A stretch of 64,000 nt of DNA from an uncultured Clostridia bacterium (lineage in GTDB: Bacteria > Bacillota > Clostridia > TANB77 > CAG-508): NCBI GenBank assembly GCA_947632605.1, contig CANRPX010000001.1, forward strand, positions 198,416-262,415. The letters are read 5' to 3'. Within the stretch, counting starts at the first letter, position 1. Each line of letters begins with the position of its first letter. Positions 1,666-8,724 of the stretch are shown here, in pieces. The notes under the pieces are model-generated. The model had not been told where the DNA came from. It did not search any database and saw only the letters and a list, made by a program, of their open reading frames with translations. The position numbers were made by a program, and so were the translations under genes.

Positions 1666-2205
1666 TTGTTTATTAGTATAATTTTAATAGCATTTTGCAT
1701 TGGATTTTTTTCAGAAAAAATAAATATTAAAAATGATGAATTAGTAACTAATATTGCTAAATGGTCTTTTAACTCAAGTAACACTGAAAAAATGATTAAT
1801 ATATCTAATGAAAAAATATTTCCTGGTTCAAAAGGAGAATTTGAAATAGAATTAGATGCAACAGGTGCGGAAACAGATATTGAATATAAGATATTAGTTT
1901 TAGAAGAAAAAAATATACCAAGTAATTTTGAATTTTATGCAGAGACTATAAATTCTAAAGGAGAAATAATTGATAAAACAGATAAATATCAGCATTTTTC
2001 CGAATTAGCAAATAATAAATTGTTTGGAAGTATAGCTTTTGATAAGAATAATCAAACAAGAAAGATAAAAGTTTACTGGTTTTGGAAAGATGAAAATGTT
2101 GATGATTTATTAAATATCAAAGATGGAACTTTAGTTTTTAATGAAAACAATGAAAGTTCTTTAGATTGCAATTTAAAAATTGAAATTATAGGTAAACAGA
2201 TATAA
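1666..2205 (+). CDS. TasA/camelysin (peptidase M73)-family secreted protein; SipW-cognate type N-terminus
   Basis: Signal peptide, then INISNEKIFPGSKGEFEIEL (compare TasA/CalY ...NLSNLKPGD...FxFxN), KIKVYWFWKDEN (CalY KVKFLWNWDKQ) and a C-terminal SLDCNLKIEI block (CalY SLNLEWTF). The ORF starts at TTG 1666, but an in-frame ATT at 1642 lies 7 nt after GGAGG (1631-1635) and would give MNRIIRICLF..., a classic n-region plus h-region. Confidence 0.55.
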   Translation: MFISIILIAFCIGFFSEKINIKNDELVTNIAKWSFNSSNTEKMINISNEKIFPGSKGEFEIELDATGAETDIEYKILVLEEKNIPSNFEFYAETINSKGEIIDKTDKYQHFSELANNKLFGSIAFDKNNQTRKIKVYWFWKDENVDDLLNIKDGTLVFNENNESSLDCNLKIEIIGKQI

Positions 2206-2414
2206 TTTTAAATAATTTTGCACAAAAGAAAATTAATTACCTTTTTATTAAATAAATTTTTTACGAAAGAATTCATAATTAAAATCTTATAAACTTTATA
2301 TATTTTTAAGGTGGCATTTTTAAAGCCGAATGCCACTTTAAATTTTTTATTAAGAATAGTAATTATTATTATTTTTAATAAAGAATTTTAAAAATGTATA
2401 TTCGTTTATTTTAA

Positions 2415-2903
2415 TTGGAGGTGAAATTTAAAATAAAGAAAAAAGAAATAATTTTATTAATCTTGTTAATATTAATTCCGATAAAAGTTTCAGCAGGATA
2501 TTACGAAAAAATAGAAAATATAAAACTTTACTTCTTTATTGCAAAACCTATTTTAGTGATAGAAAAACAACAAAGCGAAATTGTAAAAAATGTTTATCAA
2601 AAAGAAAAAATAAAAGAATTTTATTTTACTATTAGAAATTATGAAGTAAATAATAATGTAAAAGAAATTTCAGAAGTTCCATTTTTTATTGATATGAAAA
2701 TAGAAAATTCAAATCAAAATTTTCCAATTGAATATAAAATATATGATTGTGAAAATAATGAAGAAATAACTGAGGATAAAAAAATATTTATAGATAAAAA
2801 TATTGAGTTTTTAAAAAAATATAAAGTTATAACTAGTTGGAAAAGTGATGCTAAAAATAGTTATAATGAAACAAACATTATTTTTAATATAGAACAAGCT
2901 TAA
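2415..2903 (+). CDS. secreted hypothetical protein (signal peptide ...IKVSAGYY), a possible companion matrix protein
   Basis: N-terminal hydrophobic signal with an AG/Y cleavage-like site. Lys/Glu/Asn-rich. No recognisable catalytic motif. Confidence 0.4.
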   Translation: MEVKFKIKKKEIILLILLILIPIKVSAGYYEKIENIKLYFFIAKPILVIEKQQSEIVKNVYQKEKIKEFYFTIRNYEVNNNVKEISEVPFFIDMKIENSNQNFPIEYKIYDCENNEEITEDKKIFIDKNIEFLKKYKVITSWKSDAKNSYNETNIIFNIEQA

Positions 2904-2924
2904 AAAGAGTAGTTAGAGGTTAAA

Positions 2925-3131
2925 ATGAAAAAAATATTTTTAATTAAAATTGTAATTGTTTTCTTATTATTTGTTATGATTTTTATAAGTAGTTTTAAAT
3001 TAGGAAAGAAATTTTATTTTTTAAAAAATACTTTACAGAATAATATGAAAGTAAATGCTAAAGCAACAATTATGAGATGGAATTTTAATGTAAAATTTAT
3101 AGTAGGAAAAGAGGTATTTGAGATTGAATAA
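2925..3131 (+). CDS. small membrane protein (one N-terminal TM)
   Basis: 68 aa, MKKIFLIKIVIVFLLFVMIFISSF hydrophobic helix. Overlaps the next ORF by 14 nt, which suggests operon-style coupling. Confidence 0.3.
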   Translation: MKKIFLIKIVIVFLLFVMIFISSFKLGKKFYFLKNTLQNNMKVNAKATIMRWNFNVKFIVGKEVFEIE

Positions 3132-3330
3132 AATAATATATAAAATTGTTTTTATTTTAATATTTGTAATTCTTTTTTTTACTATCAATGTATATGCTAA
3201 ATATAAATTAACATATAAATTACCAATATATAAAATTCAAATTAAAGAAAATGAACAAATAGATGATTCATTAGTAGTTTTAAAAGAAAATAATATGGAA
3301 AACAGACCTATTATAGAAATTCATAGATAA
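3118..3330 (+). CDS. small membrane protein (one N-terminal TM)
   Basis: 70 aa, IVFILIFVILFFTINVYA signal/TM. Tightly packed with the upstream ORFs. Confidence 0.3.
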   Translation: MRLNKIIYKIVFILIFVILFFTINVYAKYKLTYKLPIYKIQIKENEQIDDSLVVLKENNMENRPIIEIHR

Positions 3331-3410
3331 ATTATAATTATTAATTTAAACTTGTGAAAAAAACATATAAATGATATAATACTTTAGAAATTATATATGA
3401 GGAGAATTAG

Positions 3411-4268
3411 ATGTTATTTTCACAGCATAAAATGAAAACTTATGCTTTTGTTGGACCATCTGGTACAGGAAAGAGTTATAGGGCACAGATGGTAGCAAAT
3501 GAAAGAGGAATAAATTATATAATAGATGATGGACTTTTAATATCTGGAAATGAAATACTAGCTGGAATCTCTGCTAAAAAAGCACCAACAAAAATTGAAA
3601 CAGTAAGAAATGCATTATTTCAAAATGAAGAAAGAAAAAAGGAAATTCAAGAAGTAATTAGAAAAAGAAAACCAGATAGCATTTTAATATTAGGAACTTC
3701 TGATGAAATGGTTAAAAAAATTGTAGAAAACTTAGGATTTGAACCAATAACAGAAACTATATATATAACAGATGTAGCAACAGAAGAAGAAATGGCAATG
3801 GCGAGAGATATAAGAGTTCATCAAGGAAAACATGTTATTCCAGTTCCAACATTTGCTTTAAAAAAAGATTTTTCTGGTTATTTATTAGATCCACTTCAAA
3901 TTTTCAAATCTAAAGGAAGAGGGAAGGAACCTTATATATCAGAAAAATCTATTATAAGACCAACATTTAGTTATATGGGAAATTTTAAAATTTCTGATAC
4001 AGTTTTTAAACAAATAATGGATTGTGTGGCTCAAAAACAAGAAGGAGTACATAAAATTTATAGAGCAATTATAAAAAAACATGAAGAATTAAATGATGGT
4101 ATATATATTTATATAGAAGTAATTATTAATTATGGTTATAATGTTAATGATACTATGCAAGAATTAAAAAGAAGAATTATAAAAGAAATAGAAAAAATGA
4201 CAGCTATGAATGTTCTTAATATGGAAATTGTAGTTAAAGGTGTAAATTTAGAAAAGAAAAGCAAATAG
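3411..4268 (+). CDS. P-loop NTPase fused to a C-terminal Asp23/Gls24 (alkaline-shock protein, DUF322)-like domain
   Basis: Walker A GPSGTGKS at residues 15-22. C-terminal DGIYIYIEVIINYGYNVNDTMQELKRRIIKEIEKMTAMNVLNMEIVVKGVNL matches the Asp23 family signature (the ...VxYGxNI...V.V.V. pattern). RBS GAGGAG lies upstream. Confidence 0.5.
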   Translation: MLFSQHKMKTYAFVGPSGTGKSYRAQMVANERGINYIIDDGLLISGNEILAGISAKKAPTKIETVRNALFQNEERKKEIQEVIRKRKPDSILILGTSDEMVKKIVENLGFEPITETIYITDVATEEEMAMARDIRVHQGKHVIPVPTFALKKDFSGYLLDPLQIFKSKGRGKEPYISEKSIIRPTFSYMGNFKISDTVFKQIMDCVAQKQEGVHKIYRAIIKKHEELNDGIYIYIEVIINYGYNVNDTMQELKRRIIKEIEKMTAMNVLNMEIVVKGVNLEKKSK

Positions 4269-4311
4269 TTTATATGCTTTTTAAAAAAATATTTAAGGAT
4301 GAAATTGAATT

Positions 4312-4998
4312 ATGGCTTTTGTTGTTGCAATAGATGGACCAGCTGGTAGTGGAAAAGGAACAATCACAAAAATAGTTGGTGAAAAAATGAATTTAATAAA
4401 TATCGATACAGGTGCAATGTATAGATGTGTTACTTTAGCTTGTTTAGAAAAAGAAATTAAACCAGAAGATAATGATAAAATTTCAGAAGTTTTAGAAAGT
4501 ATTGATATAAAATTAGAAAAACAAAATGAAAAAAATCTTGTGTTCTTAAATGGAAAAGATGTTAGTGAAGAAATTAGAACTACAAGAGTAAATGAAAATG
4601 TGGCTAAATTTGCTGCTATTAAAATAATAAGAGATAAAATAACTCCTATCGAGAGAAAAATGGGAGAAATTCAAGATGTAATTATGGAAGGACGAGATAT
4701 TGGTACAGTAGTTTTTCCAGATGCAGATGTAAAAATATACCTAGATTGTTCTTTAGAAGAAAGAGCACGCAGACGTTACAAACAAAATTTACAAAAAGGA
4801 ATAAATTCTAGTTATGAAGAAGTTTTAGAAAATATAAAACAAAGACATAAATTAGAAACAGAAAGAGATATAGCACCTTTTGTTAAAGCGGAAGATGCTA
4901 TATATATAGATAGTACAAATTTAACAATAGAAGAGGTCACTGAAAAAATTATAGAAATTATTTCAAAAAAGAAGTTAGAAATTAGTAATAAAAATTAA
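4312..4998 (+). CDS. cmk: cytidylate kinase
   Basis: AIDGPAGSGKGT P-loop, GAMYR, and the DIGTVVFPDADVKIYLD...ERARRR motifs characteristic of Cmk. Confidence 0.9.
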   Translation: MAFVVAIDGPAGSGKGTITKIVGEKMNLINIDTGAMYRCVTLACLEKEIKPEDNDKISEVLESIDIKLEKQNEKNLVFLNGKDVSEEIRTTRVNENVAKFAAIKIIRDKITPIERKMGEIQDVIMEGRDIGTVVFPDADVKIYLDCSLEERARRRYKQNLQKGINSSYEEVLENIKQRHKLETERDIAPFVKAEDAIYIDSTNLTIEEVTEKIIEIISKKKLEISNKN

Positions 4999-5056
4999 AA
5001 ATGTAAAATTAAATATTGTTTGATAATATATCTTATTAATAAAGTTAGGGGTAAAT

Positions 5057-5671
5057 ATGAAAGATTTTTTTAAAGGAATTGGCAGAGTATTTATTAGAAG
5101 TGTTATATATATTTATTGCAAAATTGTATATAGAGTAAAGATTATTGGAAAAGAGAATATTCCTAAAGAAGGACCACTTCTTTTTTGTGGAAATCATAGA
5201 ACTTATTTAGATCCACCTTTAATAGTTGTTACAGCAGGAAGACACATGAGATTTCTTGCCAAAGAAGAATTAAGAAAAAATCCATTATTTGCTTTATTAG
5301 GAGTACTTTTTGAAGGAATATATGTTAAAAGAGATGAAAAAGATATAACCGCTTTAAAAAAAGCTTTAAAAACTTTAAAAAGTGGTGGATGTATAGGATT
5401 ATTCCCAGAAGGTACTAGAAATGGTTTAGAAAAAAATGATGGAAAAATAAAAAATGGTGCTGCATATATGGCATTAAAGTCAAATGCGAAAGTTGTACCA
5501 ATAGGAATTGTAGGACCTTCAAAACCGTTTACAAAAAATGCAATCATATATGGAAAACCAATTGATTTATCAGAATATGCCTCAAGTAAGAAAATAGAAA
5601 AAGAAACAGAAGAAAAGGTAAGTGAAATTATAAAAGAAGAAATTGTAAAATTAAGTAATGAGAAAATATAA
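5057..5671 (+). CDS. plsC: 1-acyl-sn-glycerol-3-phosphate acyltransferase
   Basis: H(X4)D motif in CGNHRTYLDP and the FPEGTRN motif. Confidence 0.8.
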   Translation: MKDFFKGIGRVFIRSVIYIYCKIVYRVKIIGKENIPKEGPLLFCGNHRTYLDPPLIVVTAGRHMRFLAKEELRKNPLFALLGVLFEGIYVKRDEKDITALKKALKTLKSGGCIGLFPEGTRNGLEKNDGKIKNGAAYMALKSNAKVVPIGIVGPSKPFTKNAIIYGKPIDLSEYASSKKIEKETEEKVSEIIKEEIVKLSNEKI

Positions 5672-5749
5672 ATGTTAATTTAAATAAAATAGTATTCAAT
5701 TTTAATTTTATATATTATAATAATAAAAAAAGAGAGGGGATTTTAAAAA

Positions 5750-6304
5750 ATGTTTTGTGGGGAATGTGGTAAAAAAATTGAAGAAAATTCAAAGTTTTGC
5801 AATTTTTGTGGAGCAAAAATTGAAACAAAAAATGAAGAAAAAACTGTTGCTAATAATGTAGAAAATACAAGTAATAGTAATAACACTAATGTTAATACAA
5901 ATGGACAAAATACAGTAAGTAATCAGCCACCAGTTCAAAATTATCAAGCACCAAGTTATCAAACTCAAAATTATCAGGCACCAAATTATCAGATGCCACC
6001 TAATTATCAAATGCCACCAAATTATCAAAATAATAATTCTAATTTTTATAATAATGGCAATAATATACCTTATGAATATAAACCAATTTCAATGTGGGGT
6101 TATTTTGGTTATGAAATCTTATTTTGGATACCTATTTTAGGAGTAATACTTTTTTTAATATTTGCACTTGGAGGAACTTCAAATAAAAATCTTAGAAATT
6201 ATGCAGCATCAAAGTTTTGCATTGTAATTATATTAGCTATTCTTCTATTCTTAATGTTTGGTGCTGGAATTTTTAGTGCTGCTACTGCAATGGGTAGATG
6301 GTAA
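5750..6304 (+). CDS. zinc-ribbon protein with a low-complexity N/Q/Y-rich (PNYQ-repeat) linker and C-terminal transmembrane helices
   Basis: CGECGKK...CNFCGAK zinc ribbon. Tandem NYQ(A/M)P repeats. Two predicted TM helices at the C-terminus. Confidence 0.6.
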   Translation: MFCGECGKKIEENSKFCNFCGAKIETKNEEKTVANNVENTSNSNNTNVNTNGQNTVSNQPPVQNYQAPSYQTQNYQAPNYQMPPNYQMPPNYQNNNSNFYNNGNNIPYEYKPISMWGYFGYEILFWIPILGVILFLIFALGGTSNKNLRNYAASKFCIVIILAILLFLMFGAGIFSAATAMGRW

Positions 6305-6365
6305 TATTTTATAACTAATATTTAAAAATAAGTACATATCACAATATAAATTAACATAAAATTTG

Positions 6366-6394
6366 TTGACAAATAAAAACTGCTAGTATATAAT
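6366..6394 (+). promoter_or_regulatory. sigma-A promoter TTGACA-17-TATAAT upstream of typA
   Basis: Consensus hexamers at 6366-6371 and 6389-6394. This implies a leader of about 100 nt before the typA start at 6503. Confidence 0.5.
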
Positions 6395-6502
6395 AATATG
6401 GTTAAATTTGAGAGAAAAATCAAGTTTAACCTTTTTATATTTTATAAAATATTAGTTCTAATTAATAATAAAATACATAAAAATCAAAGGGGTAATAAAA
6501 AA

Positions 6503-8326
6503 ATGAATAACCAGAAAATTAGAAATGTAGCAATAATTGCACACGTTGACCATGGAAAAACAACTTTAGTTGATGCAATGCTTAGACAAAGTGGTATTTT
6601 TAGAAGTAATGAACAAGTTGAAGAAAGAGTTATGGATTCAAATGACTTAGAAAGAGAAAGAGGAATCACTATTCTTTCTAAAAATACAGCAGTACATTAT
6701 GGTGACATTAAAATAAATATTGTAGATACACCAGGACATGCAGACTTTGGTGGAGAAGTTGAACGTGTACTAAAAATGGTAGATGGAGTTGTATTATTAG
6801 TTGATGCTTTTGAAGGTGCTATGCCTCAAACTAGAGAGGTTTTGAAAAAATCATTAGCATTAAATTTAAAACCAATTGTTGTTATAAATAAAATAGATAG
6901 ACCAGGTGCACAACCTTATAAAGTAGTTGACCAGGTTTTAGAGTTATTTATAGAACTTGGAGCAAATGATGAACAATTAGATTTTCCTGTTGTCTATGCA
7001 TCTGCTAAACAAGGTACTGCAACTTTAGATTTAAATCAAACTGGAACAGACTTAAAATGTTTATTTGAAACAATAATAAATTCAATTGATCCTCCAAAAT
7101 GTGAGATGGAAGGACCAATGCAAATGCTAGTTTCTAATATAGATTATGATGATTACATTGGAAGAATTTCAATAGGTAGAGTTGAAAGAGGAGAAATTAA
7201 TTTAAATATGCCTGTTGCAATTTGCAAAAGTGAAAACAAAATATTAAATGCAAGAGTAGCAAAGTTATATCTATACGATGGATTAAAAAGAATAGAAGTT
7301 GAGCATGCCAAAGCTGGAGATATTGTTGCATTATCAGGTGTAGCTGATATTAATATTGGTGATACAATTTGTGATTATGAACATCCTGAAAAAATTCCTT
7401 TTGTAGATATTGATGAACCAACAGTATCTATGACATTTAGTGTTAATAATGGACCTTTTGCAGGAAGAGAAGGAAAATTTATTACTTCAAGACATATTAG
7501 AGATAGATTATTTAAAGAATTAGATAGAAATGTTAGTTTAAGAGTAAAAGAAACAGAATCACCAGATTCTTTTGAGGTTTCAGGAAGAGGAGAATTACAT
7601 TTATCTGTACTTATTGAAACTATGAGAAGAGAAGGATTTGAACTTTTAGTTTCAAGACCAAAAGTTATTTTAAAAGAAATTAATGGTGTTAAATGTGAAC
7701 CAATTGAAAGATTAGTTGTAAATGTTCCAGATGATTGTGTTGGAAATGTTATAGAAAAATTAGGTAGAAGAAAAGCTGAAATGATTAATATGGAGCCAGC
7801 AGAAGATGGACATACAAAAATAGAATTTAAAATTCCAGCTAGAGGAATTATTGGATATAGAACAGAATTCTTAACAGATACAAAAGGTGAAGGAACAATG
7901 AATCACATTTTTGACTGTTACGAAGAATTTAAAGGTGATATTCAAGCTAGAACAAGAGGAACAATAGTTGCTTTTGAAAATGGAAAATCTATTACTTATG
8001 GTTTATATAATGCTCAAGATAAAGGAGATTTATTTATAGGACCTGGTGTAGAAGTTTATGAAGGTATGATAGTAGGACTAAATTCTAGAGGAGAAGATTT
8101 AGCTATAAATGTATGTAAAGAAAAACATTTAACAAATACTAGAGCATCTGGATCTGATGAAGCATTACGTTTAGTTCCACCAATTCAAATGTCTTTAGAG
8201 AAAGCAATTGAATTTATACAAGATGATGAACTTGTAGAAGTAACACCACAAAGTATTAGATTAAGAAAGAAAATACTTAATAATAAAGATAGAGAAAGAG
8301 CTGCAAGAGCTACTATGAATAAATAA
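6503..8326 (+). CDS. typA: translational GTPase TypA/BipA
   Basis: [31 protein letters not shown] and NKIDR G-motifs. About 607 aa and colinear with BipA. The start is taken at the ATG preceded by AAAGGGG; the ORF track extends further 5'. Confidence 0.9.
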
Positions 8327-8382
8327 AAAAACCCCGCTTTGTAACGCGCACGAACGATACTAAGCGGGATTTGTTTAGAGGA
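8327..8382. terminator. bidirectional Rho-independent terminator (GC-rich hairpin CCCGCTT...AAGCGGG)
   Basis: AAAAACCCCGCTT-(22 nt)-AAGCGGGATTTGTTT on the + strand. On the - strand it reads GGGG followed by T6, so it can terminate both typA and the convergent minus-strand ORF. Confidence 0.55.
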
Positions 8383-8397
8383 TATACCCTCTAAAAA

Positions 8398-8724
8398 TTA
8401 AATGCTTTCCGGACGATATATTAATAATTCTTGCTCTCCGGATACGTCGGTCTGTCTGCGGTATGCAATAAAAGACCGTCTTGGGTCGATGTTCTTGAGA
8501 GAAAGGTATTCGCCATCTTGTATCATGTGGAACATGTACTGATTCTTTTGAAAAAAAGAAAAATCAGTTACAGGAGATGACAATTTCTTGTCTGACAGTA
8601 TTATGCCATCACATTCTACAACGTAGGCTAAAACCATCCGATCTGTGAGATCTACACCTAACTCCTCGAGTTTCTCGAAAACTTCTTGATTTGATACATA
8701 ATCCATGGAATCGCCCCTTTGCAA
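8398..8724 (-). CDS. hypothetical protein (108 aa) in a locally GC-rich island, the only minus-strand gene in the window
   Basis: Clean ORF with clearly higher GC (mid-40s %) than its flanks. No recognisable motifs. Convergent with typA. Confidence 0.45.
   Translation of the reverse strand: MQRGDSMDYVSNQEVFEKLEELGVDLTDRMVLAYVVECDGIILSDKKLSSPVTDFSFFQKNQYMFHMIQDGEYLSLKNIDPRRSFIAYRRQTDVSGEQELLIYRPESI

Follow-up and report, generated by a model that had tools for sequence, protein, structure and literature searches.

What might a bacterium do with a single polypeptide that carries a P-loop at one end and an Asp23/Gls24 domain at the other? This question was raised by a gene near the beginning of the 64,000-nucleotide stretch of clostridial DNA analyzed here (the window), which the original prediction had read as a P-loop NTPase fused to an Asp23 (DUF322) domain. 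To our knowledge, few bacterial proteins without a known function are expressed as highly as those of the Asp23 family, one of which, RfaA/YqhY, was only very recently proposed as a proteolysis adaptor. An Asp23–P-loop fusion thus provides a biochemical handle, as nucleotide binding, phosphotransfer and oligomerization can be assayed on one polypeptide, and its fusion partner hints at the kind of activity that Asp23 modules organize.

The gene and its domain architecture

The predicted reading frame on the forward strand, with a Walker A motif at its N-terminus, was indeed found, and its features and local signals are the following.

3352..3380, + strand: promoter-like site (TTGTGA, 17 nt, TG-extended TATAAT), matching the consensus at 10 of 12 positions, 30 nt before the start codon
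3399..3404, + strand: ribosome-binding site GAGGAG, read from the sequence, 6 nt before the ATG at 3411
3411..4268, + strand: coding sequence of the fusion protein, an intact ORF of 285 codons encoding a 285-aa P-loop/Asp23 protein
3432..3866, + strand: kinase-like P-loop domain, aa 8-152, for which neither Pfam nor NCBIfam has a dedicated family
3453..3476, + strand: Walker A motif GPSGTGKS, aa 15-22, invariant across the family
3525..3533, + strand: DDG, aa 39-41, at the end of strand 2; D39 and D40 100% and G41 99% conserved
3867..3977, + strand: linker, aa 153-189, with the motifs FSGY..DP and E-x4-RPTFSY; conserved, AF2 pLDDT below 50
3978..4244, + strand: Asp23/Gls24 (DUF322) domain, aa 190-278, Pfam PF03780

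In the wider family, the majority of members start at the equivalent of M8, which would correspond here to the alternative ATG at 3432. In the clade of the window protein, the ATG at 3411 is the likely start instead, because it is preceded by the GAGGAG ribosome-binding site and because residues 3, 6 and 7 are kept in close relatives. The promoter-like site at 3352..3380 is a consensus match only, the region containing 29 such sites against 26.9 expected, i.e., no enrichment. A hydropathy scan of all 285 residues found no hydrophobic or membrane segment, the highest 19-residue value being 1.09, and the protein is predicted to be soluble.

The C-terminal segment quoted in the original prediction lies inside a PF03780 match that scored 37.5 bits against a gathering cutoff of 28 (E 3.5e-9) and covered profile positions 3-107 of 108; the C-terminus thus does score as Asp23, and the proposed fusion holds. 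Of 37 diverse homologues, 35 also matched this profile, at E-values down to 2.8e-14. Conservation was assessed in an alignment of these 37 members, which reach down to ~33% identity, and then in 489 unique full-length members, in which G15, G18, G20, K21 and S22 of the Walker A motif are all 100% conserved. Because of the recurrence of the Asp23 match in 35 of the 37 and this complete conservation in the 489, the Asp23 match is, on sequence evidence, far beyond chance.

Structure prediction, proposed as a check on the fusion, also gave two separate domains. With the family alignment as input, the AF2 model of the full chain (mean pLDDT 83) showed model residues 1-145 and 184-272 as two confident domains, joined by residues 147-183 with pLDDT below 50. 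The C-terminal domain was modelled as beta-alpha-beta-beta-alpha-beta with pLDDT mostly 86-97, and its Foldseek matches were ferredoxin-like domains, e.g., the C-terminal domains of CDF transporters, with target-normalized TM-scores of 0.60-0.78. The intervening linker is conserved at both ends (E178 95%, R183 99% and P184 100% in the 489 members, with G190 likewise invariant or nearly so), while its length between the two motifs varies in some family members. Since it is conserved at both ends despite its low pLDDT, we infer that its folding requires an oligomer or a bound ligand, and it may have a role in oligomer contacts or in active-site closure.

In its C-terminal 90 residues, which exceed the Pfam threshold and are predicted to form a compact alpha/beta unit, the protein resembles the stand-alone Asp23 proteins of the same phylum, Bacillota, namely Asp23 of Staphylococcus aureus and YqhY (RfaA) and YloU (RfaB) of Bacillus subtilis. 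Those, however, are 120-170 aa long and have no catalytic domain, whereas the fusion adds a P-loop domain of 145 aa and a linker of 37 aa (FSGY..DP, RPTFSY). Nor is its gene found beside accBC, fakA or amaP, its usual neighbors being cmk/plsC, ogg, udg or rex. Lacking both the stand-alone architecture and the characteristic operon partners, the protein departs from the canonical Asp23 type and is best described as an architectural variant of the family, so far unstudied, in which the N-terminal domain has no family model.

A large and conserved family

Could the fusion simply be an artefact, i.e., an assembly chimera or a gene pair joined by a frameshift? Thousands of independent assemblies, as well as complete genomes from cultured species, show the same continuous architecture, and this distribution refutes the artefact, to which we assign practically no probability. 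Both word-indexed homology searches returned at least 8,000 scored candidates. An exhaustive HMMER search of 1.84 billion cluster representatives gave 961 matches at E<=1e-3, 636 at E<=1e-10 and 258 at E<=1e-30, the last set representing 258 clusters at 50% identity. A survey of domain architecture across Clostridia had been suggested with the prediction; nearly all of the 258 clusters showed the two-domain layout at a length of ~270 aa, and almost all of the top 150 HMMER matches, likewise of ~270 aa, aligned over their full length.

The carriers are chiefly Clostridia, cultured species included, with the addition of Synergistota (a MAG). The nearest relatives of the window protein belong to Candidatus Scatovivens (82-94% identity); other carriers include Crassaminicella, Marinisporobacter, Geosporobacter, Alkaliphilus metalliredigens, Clostridium aceticum, C. 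formicaceticum, Acetivibrio, Caloranaerobacter, Lentihominibacter, Dethiobacter and Monoglobus. The protein is abundant in gut Clostridia and is also available in cultured, partly tractable species.

Annotation pipelines have named these proteins "Asp23/Gls24 family envelope stress response protein", "ATP-binding protein" or "hypothetical protein", and an automatic JGI name, 'YloU/adenylate kinase family enzyme', even covers both halves. Full-text literature searches, including those with C. acetobutylicum locus tags, found no paper describing or studying the fused form, and no NCBIfam model matched the fusion protein. As judged from these matches, the P-loop–Asp23 fusion is a large, conserved and widespread but uncharacterized Clostridial family. 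The view that this is not a characterized arrangement therefore stands in so far as neither a characterized family nor a paper on the fusion was found, but the arrangement is by no means unusual: the fusion is not a one-off, nor is it categorically new, because the databases already hold thousands of labelled copies.

A divergent P-loop domain of kinase type

When the N-terminal domain was modelled alone, AF2 returned a pLDDT of 85.4 and a pTM of 0.79. Its topology reads strand, P-loop, helix, strand (IIDD), hairpin, two helices, strand (ILILGTS), helix, strand, helix, with GPSGTGKS placed between strand 2-7 and helix 14-24 in model numbering; on this motif, the protein belongs to the P-loop NTPases. 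In the alignments and the model, an invariant 'YIIDDG' closes strand 2, and its DDG is a candidate acidic pair for binding Mg2+ or an acceptor, Walker-B-like as in DxD P-loop kinases. The invariant or near-invariant residues of the domain are G15, G18, G20, K21, S22, D39, D40, G41, G52, S54, A55, K56, T96, S97, M100, R135, H141 and P144. Since 17 positions, including K21, S22, D39, D40, K56, T96, S97, R135 and H141, are 99-100% conserved in the 489 members, the pattern suggests an active enzyme.

The class of enzyme was less sharply indicated. Of the two domains expected from a Pfam scan, Asp23 passed its cutoff, while the N-terminal domain drew generic P-loop matches only (AAA, ABC_tran, AAA_33, AAA_17 and IPT), no Pfam kinase family reaching threshold on it; weak matches among the 37 homologues included AAA_33, AAA_17, IPT and Cytidylate_kin. 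A Foldseek comparison of the domain with the PDB gave no match at E<=1e-3. P-loop kinases were the only class among the top matches, namely CMP kinase (E 2.2e-3), adenylate, APS, shikimate and gluconate kinases and the kinase domain of PNKP, but with E-values of 2e-3 or worse and TM-scores of 0.3-0.43. Sequence searches of the PDB, whether started from the single protein or from profiles of the full length or of the N-domain, gave only generic Walker A matches and chance matches to designed proteins.

Features in common with the nucleoside monophosphate, shikimate and gluconate kinases (COG0563-like) are the GxxGxGKS motif, the helix that follows, one strand closed by an acidic pair, another closed by small residues (GTS) and a conserved arginine in a late helix. 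In shikimate kinase, GGG stands at the strand end as the counterpart of GTS. The fusion differs, however, in having a beta-hairpin after DD where P-loop kinases carry their helical substrate-binding subdomain, and no canonical NMP-binding or LID region was recognized in its N-terminal domain. By sequence order, aa 42-86 (the hairpin and two helices) together with the invariant R135/H141 do match the positions of the subdomain and LID, respectively, but they showed no detectable homology to known kinase subdomains. Taken together, we consider the N-terminal domain to be an undescribed, divergent P-loop domain, probably of kinase type, with a conservation pattern that looks catalytic.

Several more specific assignments were tried and rejected. 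HPr kinase (PF07475) was suggested by the GxSGxGKS...DD spacing, but Hpr_kinase_C was matched in only 2 of the 37 members (E 0.04) and HprK was absent from the top 50 Foldseek matches. As to a duplicate of the adjacent cytidylate kinase gene, the hhalign match covered 32 columns, from the P-loop to the strand-2 aspartate (Cmk 'IDTG') only. Against the kinase domain of T4 Pnk, the sequence of which was checked against X03007.1, the family N-domain profile aligned in 23 P-loop columns only, with 27.6% probability, the region of D35, R38 and R126 being unmatched. As an AAA+ protein (PF00004), the score of 23.2 against a cutoff of 21.2 was a nominal pass, yet it was confined to the P-loop region (profile positions 3-72 of 131); the 145-aa domain has neither the hhhhDE motif nor the lid, and the p97 and Cdc48 matches in the PDB spanned just 30-40 residues around Walker A.

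Two further systems offer partial likeness. The best whole-chain Foldseek match (E 1e-5) was Era, a P-loop GTPase with a C-terminal KH domain, but only the domain order is alike: the rmsd was 17-18 A and the TM-score 0.23-0.24, and the fusion has no G2-G5 motifs and carries Asp23 in place of KH. The pair of YloU and the fatty-acid kinase FakA/YloV likewise joins Asp23 to an ATP-dependent phosphotransferase, in two genes there and in one polypeptide here, if the fusion is indeed a phosphotransferase. The analogy is architectural only, as the ATP-binding domain of FakA is Dak2/DhaL-like and that of the fusion a P-loop, and the DegV/FakB partner is not adjacent to the fusion gene.

Gene neighborhood in the window and across the family

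The genes downstream of the fusion gene in the window are listed below; cmk lies directly downstream, as had been predicted.

4312..4998, + strand: cmk (cytidylate kinase), after a gap of 43 nt; Pfam Cytidylate_kin, E 3.2e-74
5057..5671, + strand: third gene, plsC-like 1-acylglycerol-3-phosphate acyltransferase; Pfam Acyltransferase, E 1.1e-25
5750..6304, + strand: zinc-ribbon protein containing a Q/N/P/Y-rich region, with membrane segments towards the C-terminus; Pfam Zn_Ribbon_1, hydrophobic segment at aa 156
6366-6394: next strong promoter-like site, ahead of typA, 12 of 12 consensus matches

No terminator-like site was found between the fusion gene and cmk, or further on until after 6400. 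On the basis of the 43-nt gap, this absence, the promoter-like site before the fusion gene and the gene order in the clade, the fusion gene probably heads an operon with cmk and plsC, of which the zinc-ribbon gene is possibly the last member.

For the comparison of neighborhoods, 134 loci were collected by scanning genomes and metagenomes, by looking up exact proteins and from one annotated record, and grouping them all at 70% identity gave 22 lineages; the clade of the window protein was taken as the members that share at least 55% identity with it, and it contained 92 loci with a readable downstream gene. The neighborhood claimed for cmk proved real within this clade, where the next gene on the same strand was cmk in 60 loci, a cmk-plsC fusion in 14 and plsC in 12 (86 of the 92), mostly after a gap of 0-30 nt. 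It is absent from all distant lineages: among members below 55% identity in the compared loci, cmk or plsC never adjoined the fusion gene, so that the association amounts to one clade, or 2 of the 22 lineages. Neither accBC nor fakA nor amaP/DUF2273 was among the neighbors in any of the 134 loci. The lipid-related neighborhoods of YqhY (accBC) and YloU (fakA) are nonetheless echoed by plsC in the clade and by plsX-fabH in one distant lineage, the member of which heads yceD-rpmF-plsX-fabH.

Upstream of the fusion gene in the window are four small ORFs with hydrophobic N-termini, none of which matched a Pfam or NCBIfam family. The original prediction had tied the fusion to this cluster of secreted 'matrix' proteins, picturing an NTPase that energizes a membrane- or envelope-associated Asp23 scaffold. 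The literature does describe Staphylococcus aureus Asp23 as membrane-associated via AmaP and as affecting the cell envelope, and the four hydrophobic N-termini upstream, as well as plsC and the membrane zinc-ribbon protein downstream, are in line with the idea. The tie itself, however, did not survive comparison. The small secreted-protein cluster was found in the closest relatives only, and even inside the clade the upstream gene varies, the cluster giving way to unrelated genes (for a transglutaminase-like protein, RlmN or glycosyltransferases); because of this variation, the link carries no functional weight. Furthermore, the protein has no membrane segment, the window contains neither an AmaP-like gene nor a second Asp23 ORF, and most family members reside in cytoplasmic housekeeping contexts. 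An envelope scaffold driven by the P-loop is thus regarded as very improbable.

DNA glycosylases as recurrent neighbors

When neighbors were counted by lineage, DNA glycosylases and rex were commoner than lipid genes. In 8 of the 22 lineages, a same-strand glycosylase gene lay within 5 kb downstream of the fusion gene (OGG in six, the unrelated UDG in two remote ones), and rex was upstream in three. The linkage can be tight, with a gap of 6 nt between the fusion gene and OGG in one lineage (L044), an overlap of 26 nt with ogg in Monoglobus pectinilyticus, where the order is rex–fusion gene–ogg, and an overlap of 4 nt with UDG in the Synergistota member (L129); in L128 the order is fusion gene–Smr–UDG. 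Endonuclease III was upstream in two of the OGG lineages, and a gene for a 56-aa ferredoxin is often divergent upstream of the fusion gene.

These neighbors raise the alternative that the protein serves base-excision repair or the response to oxidative damage, as a kinase or ATPase that acts on nucleic acid or on damaged or cytidine/uridine nucleotides and is expressed together with a DNA glycosylase; on this view, the cmk link in the clade of the window would represent the nucleotide branch of that theme. The recurrence and tightness of the glycosylase linkage, the Endonuclease III genes, the redox character of other neighbors (rex, ferredoxin, nfnAB-like genes, malic enzyme, thioredoxin), the basic nature of the family and the PNKP kinase domain among the weak structural matches all speak for it. 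The OGG cases may nevertheless count only once, because they could all stem from one old Clostridial synteny block (rex...ogg...groESL), and DUF6062 or nfnAB-like genes are often inserted between the fusion gene and ogg. The hhalign match to T4 Pnk was confined to the P-loop, at 28% probability, and we know of no step in base-excision repair that needs a kinase beside OGG or UDG. In the window itself, there is no OGG homologue, and no Rex operator was found near 3300-3411, before the fusion gene, the whole window containing 62 matches against 73 expected. On balance, a repair function appears rather unlikely.

An evolutionary version of this idea, in which the protein would be an unrecognized kinase or ATPase partner of glycosylases in anaerobes, assumes an ancestral rex–fusion gene–ogg order, an independent re-creation of the linkage with UDG in Synergistota and in one other lineage, and a rewiring to cmk-plsC in the clade of the window. 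We consider it doubtful, a shade more so than the repair function in general. If it were true, the Asp23 domain would gain a role in oxidative or DNA damage besides or instead of lipid homeostasis.

Proposed mechanism

Stand-alone Asp23 proteins oligomerize (PMC6954212), and their paralogues are found in conserved operons with accBC (YqhY) and fakA (YloU) (bioRxiv 10.1101/2024.02.19.580884; PMC5437119). RfaA/YqhY has been reported as an adaptor that sends AccC to degradation by ClpEP, with predicted rings of 10-12 subunits (bioRxiv 10.1101/2024.02.19.580884; PMC5437119), and YloU (RfaB) has been proposed as an adaptor too (bioRxiv 10.1101/2024.02.19.580884). Recent work on the stand-alone proteins favors an adaptor function and regulation of lipid enzymes rather than an envelope scaffold (bioRxiv 10.1101/2024.02.19.580884).

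With this background, and starting from the architecture, strong purifying conservation, distribution and gene order documented above, catalysis, oligomerization, substrate and pathway may be pictured as follows. The N-terminal domain would most likely bind ATP through K21/S22 and then transfer or hydrolyze the gamma-phosphate with the help of D39/D40 (as Mg2+ or acceptor ligands), K56, T96/S97 and the lid-like R135/H141, while the Asp23 domain behind the RPTFSY linker would, by analogy with the stand-alone proteins, most likely mediate oligomer assembly or partner docking. In the organism of the window, the protein would most likely have a housekeeping function, as an ATP-dependent enzyme or regulator acting where cytidine nucleotides and phospholipid precursors meet, a role drawn from the position of its gene as the first of the probable cmk-plsC operon; this pairing would parallel that of the stand-alone Asp23 paralogues with accBC and fakA. 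We hold this combined reading tentatively, as the one we prefer, at somewhat less than even chance.

The kinase part of this reading agrees with the best structural matches, all of them P-loop kinases though weak, with the adenylate kinase family named by JGI, and with the hhalign match to Cmk, which spans the P-loop through the strand-2 aspartate; the lipid part agrees with the distant member that heads the plsX-fabH cluster. Against the former stands the fact that the domain has no significant structural or sequence match to a characterized kinase. Against the latter stand the restriction of the cmk/plsC link to a single clade and the larger number of lineages with glycosylase or rex neighbors. 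Moreover, the adjacency may amount to hitch-hiking, because cmk-plsC is in itself a common housekeeping pair.

Could the P-loop bind a nucleotide without catalysis? In such a sensor, ATP or ADP occupancy would switch the oligomeric or partner state of Asp23, making the protein an energy-sensing adaptor, e.g., one that delivers a client to a Clp protease. The small size of the N-terminal domain and its want of recognizable substrate-binding subdomains fit this picture, as do the conserved but poorly modelled linker, which could pass on a conformational change, and the precedent of RfaA/YqhY, reported as a metabolite-sensitive adaptor, and of YloU, a proposed one. The invariance of D39/D40, K56, T96/S97, R135 and H141, however, exceeds what nucleotide binding alone usually needs, and no Clp or client gene was consistently adjacent in the compared loci, making a non-catalytic sensor fairly improbable, about on a par with the ancestral glycosylase-partner scenario.

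If the link to cmk/plsC or to OGG/UDG is functional, the fusion would be a new component of phospholipid-precursor supply or of DNA-damage handling in anaerobes. For specialists in Asp23 and YqhY, the fusion should be useful and the glycosylase linkage curious, and neither overturns current understanding.

Mobility and additional features

An origin in defense, phage or plasmid was unsupported by the respective searches: PADLOC gave 0 matches to anti-phage defense systems, the sole PHROG match was to the P-loop (aa 1-37, E 0.008) and was not meaningful, and the only 'plasmid' match was a 286-kb Monoglobus replicon. For the preferred nucleotide and phospholipid reading, the fusion gene is accordingly taken as a housekeeping gene rather than a mobile or defensive one. 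No Rfam match at gathering scores, i.e., no structured RNA, was found in the window.

A few individual observations are added here. The family is basic, with a median pI of 9.2. Longer members (412-691 aa) carry N-terminal extensions of low complexity, in which no Pfam domain was found. One locus (L046) contains a divergently transcribed carboxyltransferase, and another member of the family is translationally coupled to a HAD hydrolase.

Genes flanking the P-loop/Asp23 gene

In Monoglobus pectinilyticus and at one further locus, the P-loop/Asp23 gene lies in a compact unit between rex and a gene for an OGG-family DNA glycosylase. In Monoglobus, rex ends at 7014 and the P-loop/Asp23 gene starts at 7019, leaving a gap of 4 nt, and the P-loop/Asp23 gene overlaps the OGG gene by 26 nt. 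Two remote lineages were found to carry, in place of OGG, a glycosylase of the UDG superfamily after the P-loop/Asp23 gene. Coordinates are those within each locus.

6364-8699, locus L133 (M. pectinilyticus, NZ_OY725741.1): rex, P-loop/Asp23 gene, OGG glycosylase, compact
4057-6751, locus L044: rex, P-loop/Asp23 gene, OGG glycosylase, compact
5001-6406, locus L129 (Synergistota MAG): P-loop/Asp23 gene, then UDG-superfamily gene, 4-nt overlap
5001-7853, locus L128: P-loop/Asp23 gene, Smr-domain gene, UDG-superfamily gene

In other Clostridia the block around the gene is larger, comprising tsaBD, ABC-F, rex, ferredoxin, the P-loop/Asp23 gene, ogg and groESL. In Acetivibrio and relatives (L040/L041, L109, L124, L135), a convergent DUF6062 gene is recurrently inserted between the P-loop/Asp23 gene and ogg, with ytxC upstream, and another lineage (L042, L113-L118) has the order nth, malic enzyme, P-loop/Asp23 gene, nfnA-like, nfnB-like, ogg. 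Some related gut Clostridia have, immediately after the P-loop/Asp23 gene, a single ORF of about 450 amino acids in which cmk and plsC (cytidylate kinase/acyltransferase) are fused.

5812-7176, locus L069: cmk-plsC fusion ORF, also found at 13 other loci (e.g., L074, L078, L084, L087)

Family members of extended length

Members P0140, P0172, P0177, P0186 and P0214 of the P-loop/Asp23 family are 412-691 amino acids long. Some family members, these among them, have low-complexity, S/T/Q/E/P-rich N-terminal extensions of 100-390 residues, in which Pfam detected no domain; in some, the linker that joins the P-loop domain to the Asp23 domain is also enlarged.

Other features of the window

1666-3330, +: four successive small ORFs (179, 162, 68 and 70 amino acids)
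5750-6304, +: protein combining a zinc ribbon, a long repeat region rich in N, Q, P and Y, and C-terminal membrane segments

The small ORFs, the putative "matrix-protein cluster" of the original prediction, each have a hydrophobic segment at the N-terminus, and none matched Pfam or NCBIfam. Their homologues are confined to the closest relatives and diverge rapidly, with 31-76% identity as opposed to 81-96% for the flanking genes. The zinc-ribbon protein, the repeat region of which includes NYQAPSYQTQNYQAPNYQMPPNYQ, is kept in some relatives only.

The whole window is extremely AT-rich (24% G+C). At gathering thresholds Rfam matched no family anywhere in the 64 kb, so the scan turned up neither tRNA nor rRNA nor riboswitch. 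Comparison with homologues places the likely true start of typA/bipA at the methionine of MNNQKIRN..., near 6503, and two elements lie upstream of it.

6366-6394, +: promoter-like site, a perfect match to the sigma-70 type (TTGACA, 17-nt spacer, TATAAT)
6400-6431, +: terminator-like hairpin with a T-run, 3' of the promoter-like site

The promoter-like site and hairpin may constitute a leader or attenuator. Rfam found nothing in this upstream region (6366-6502, +).
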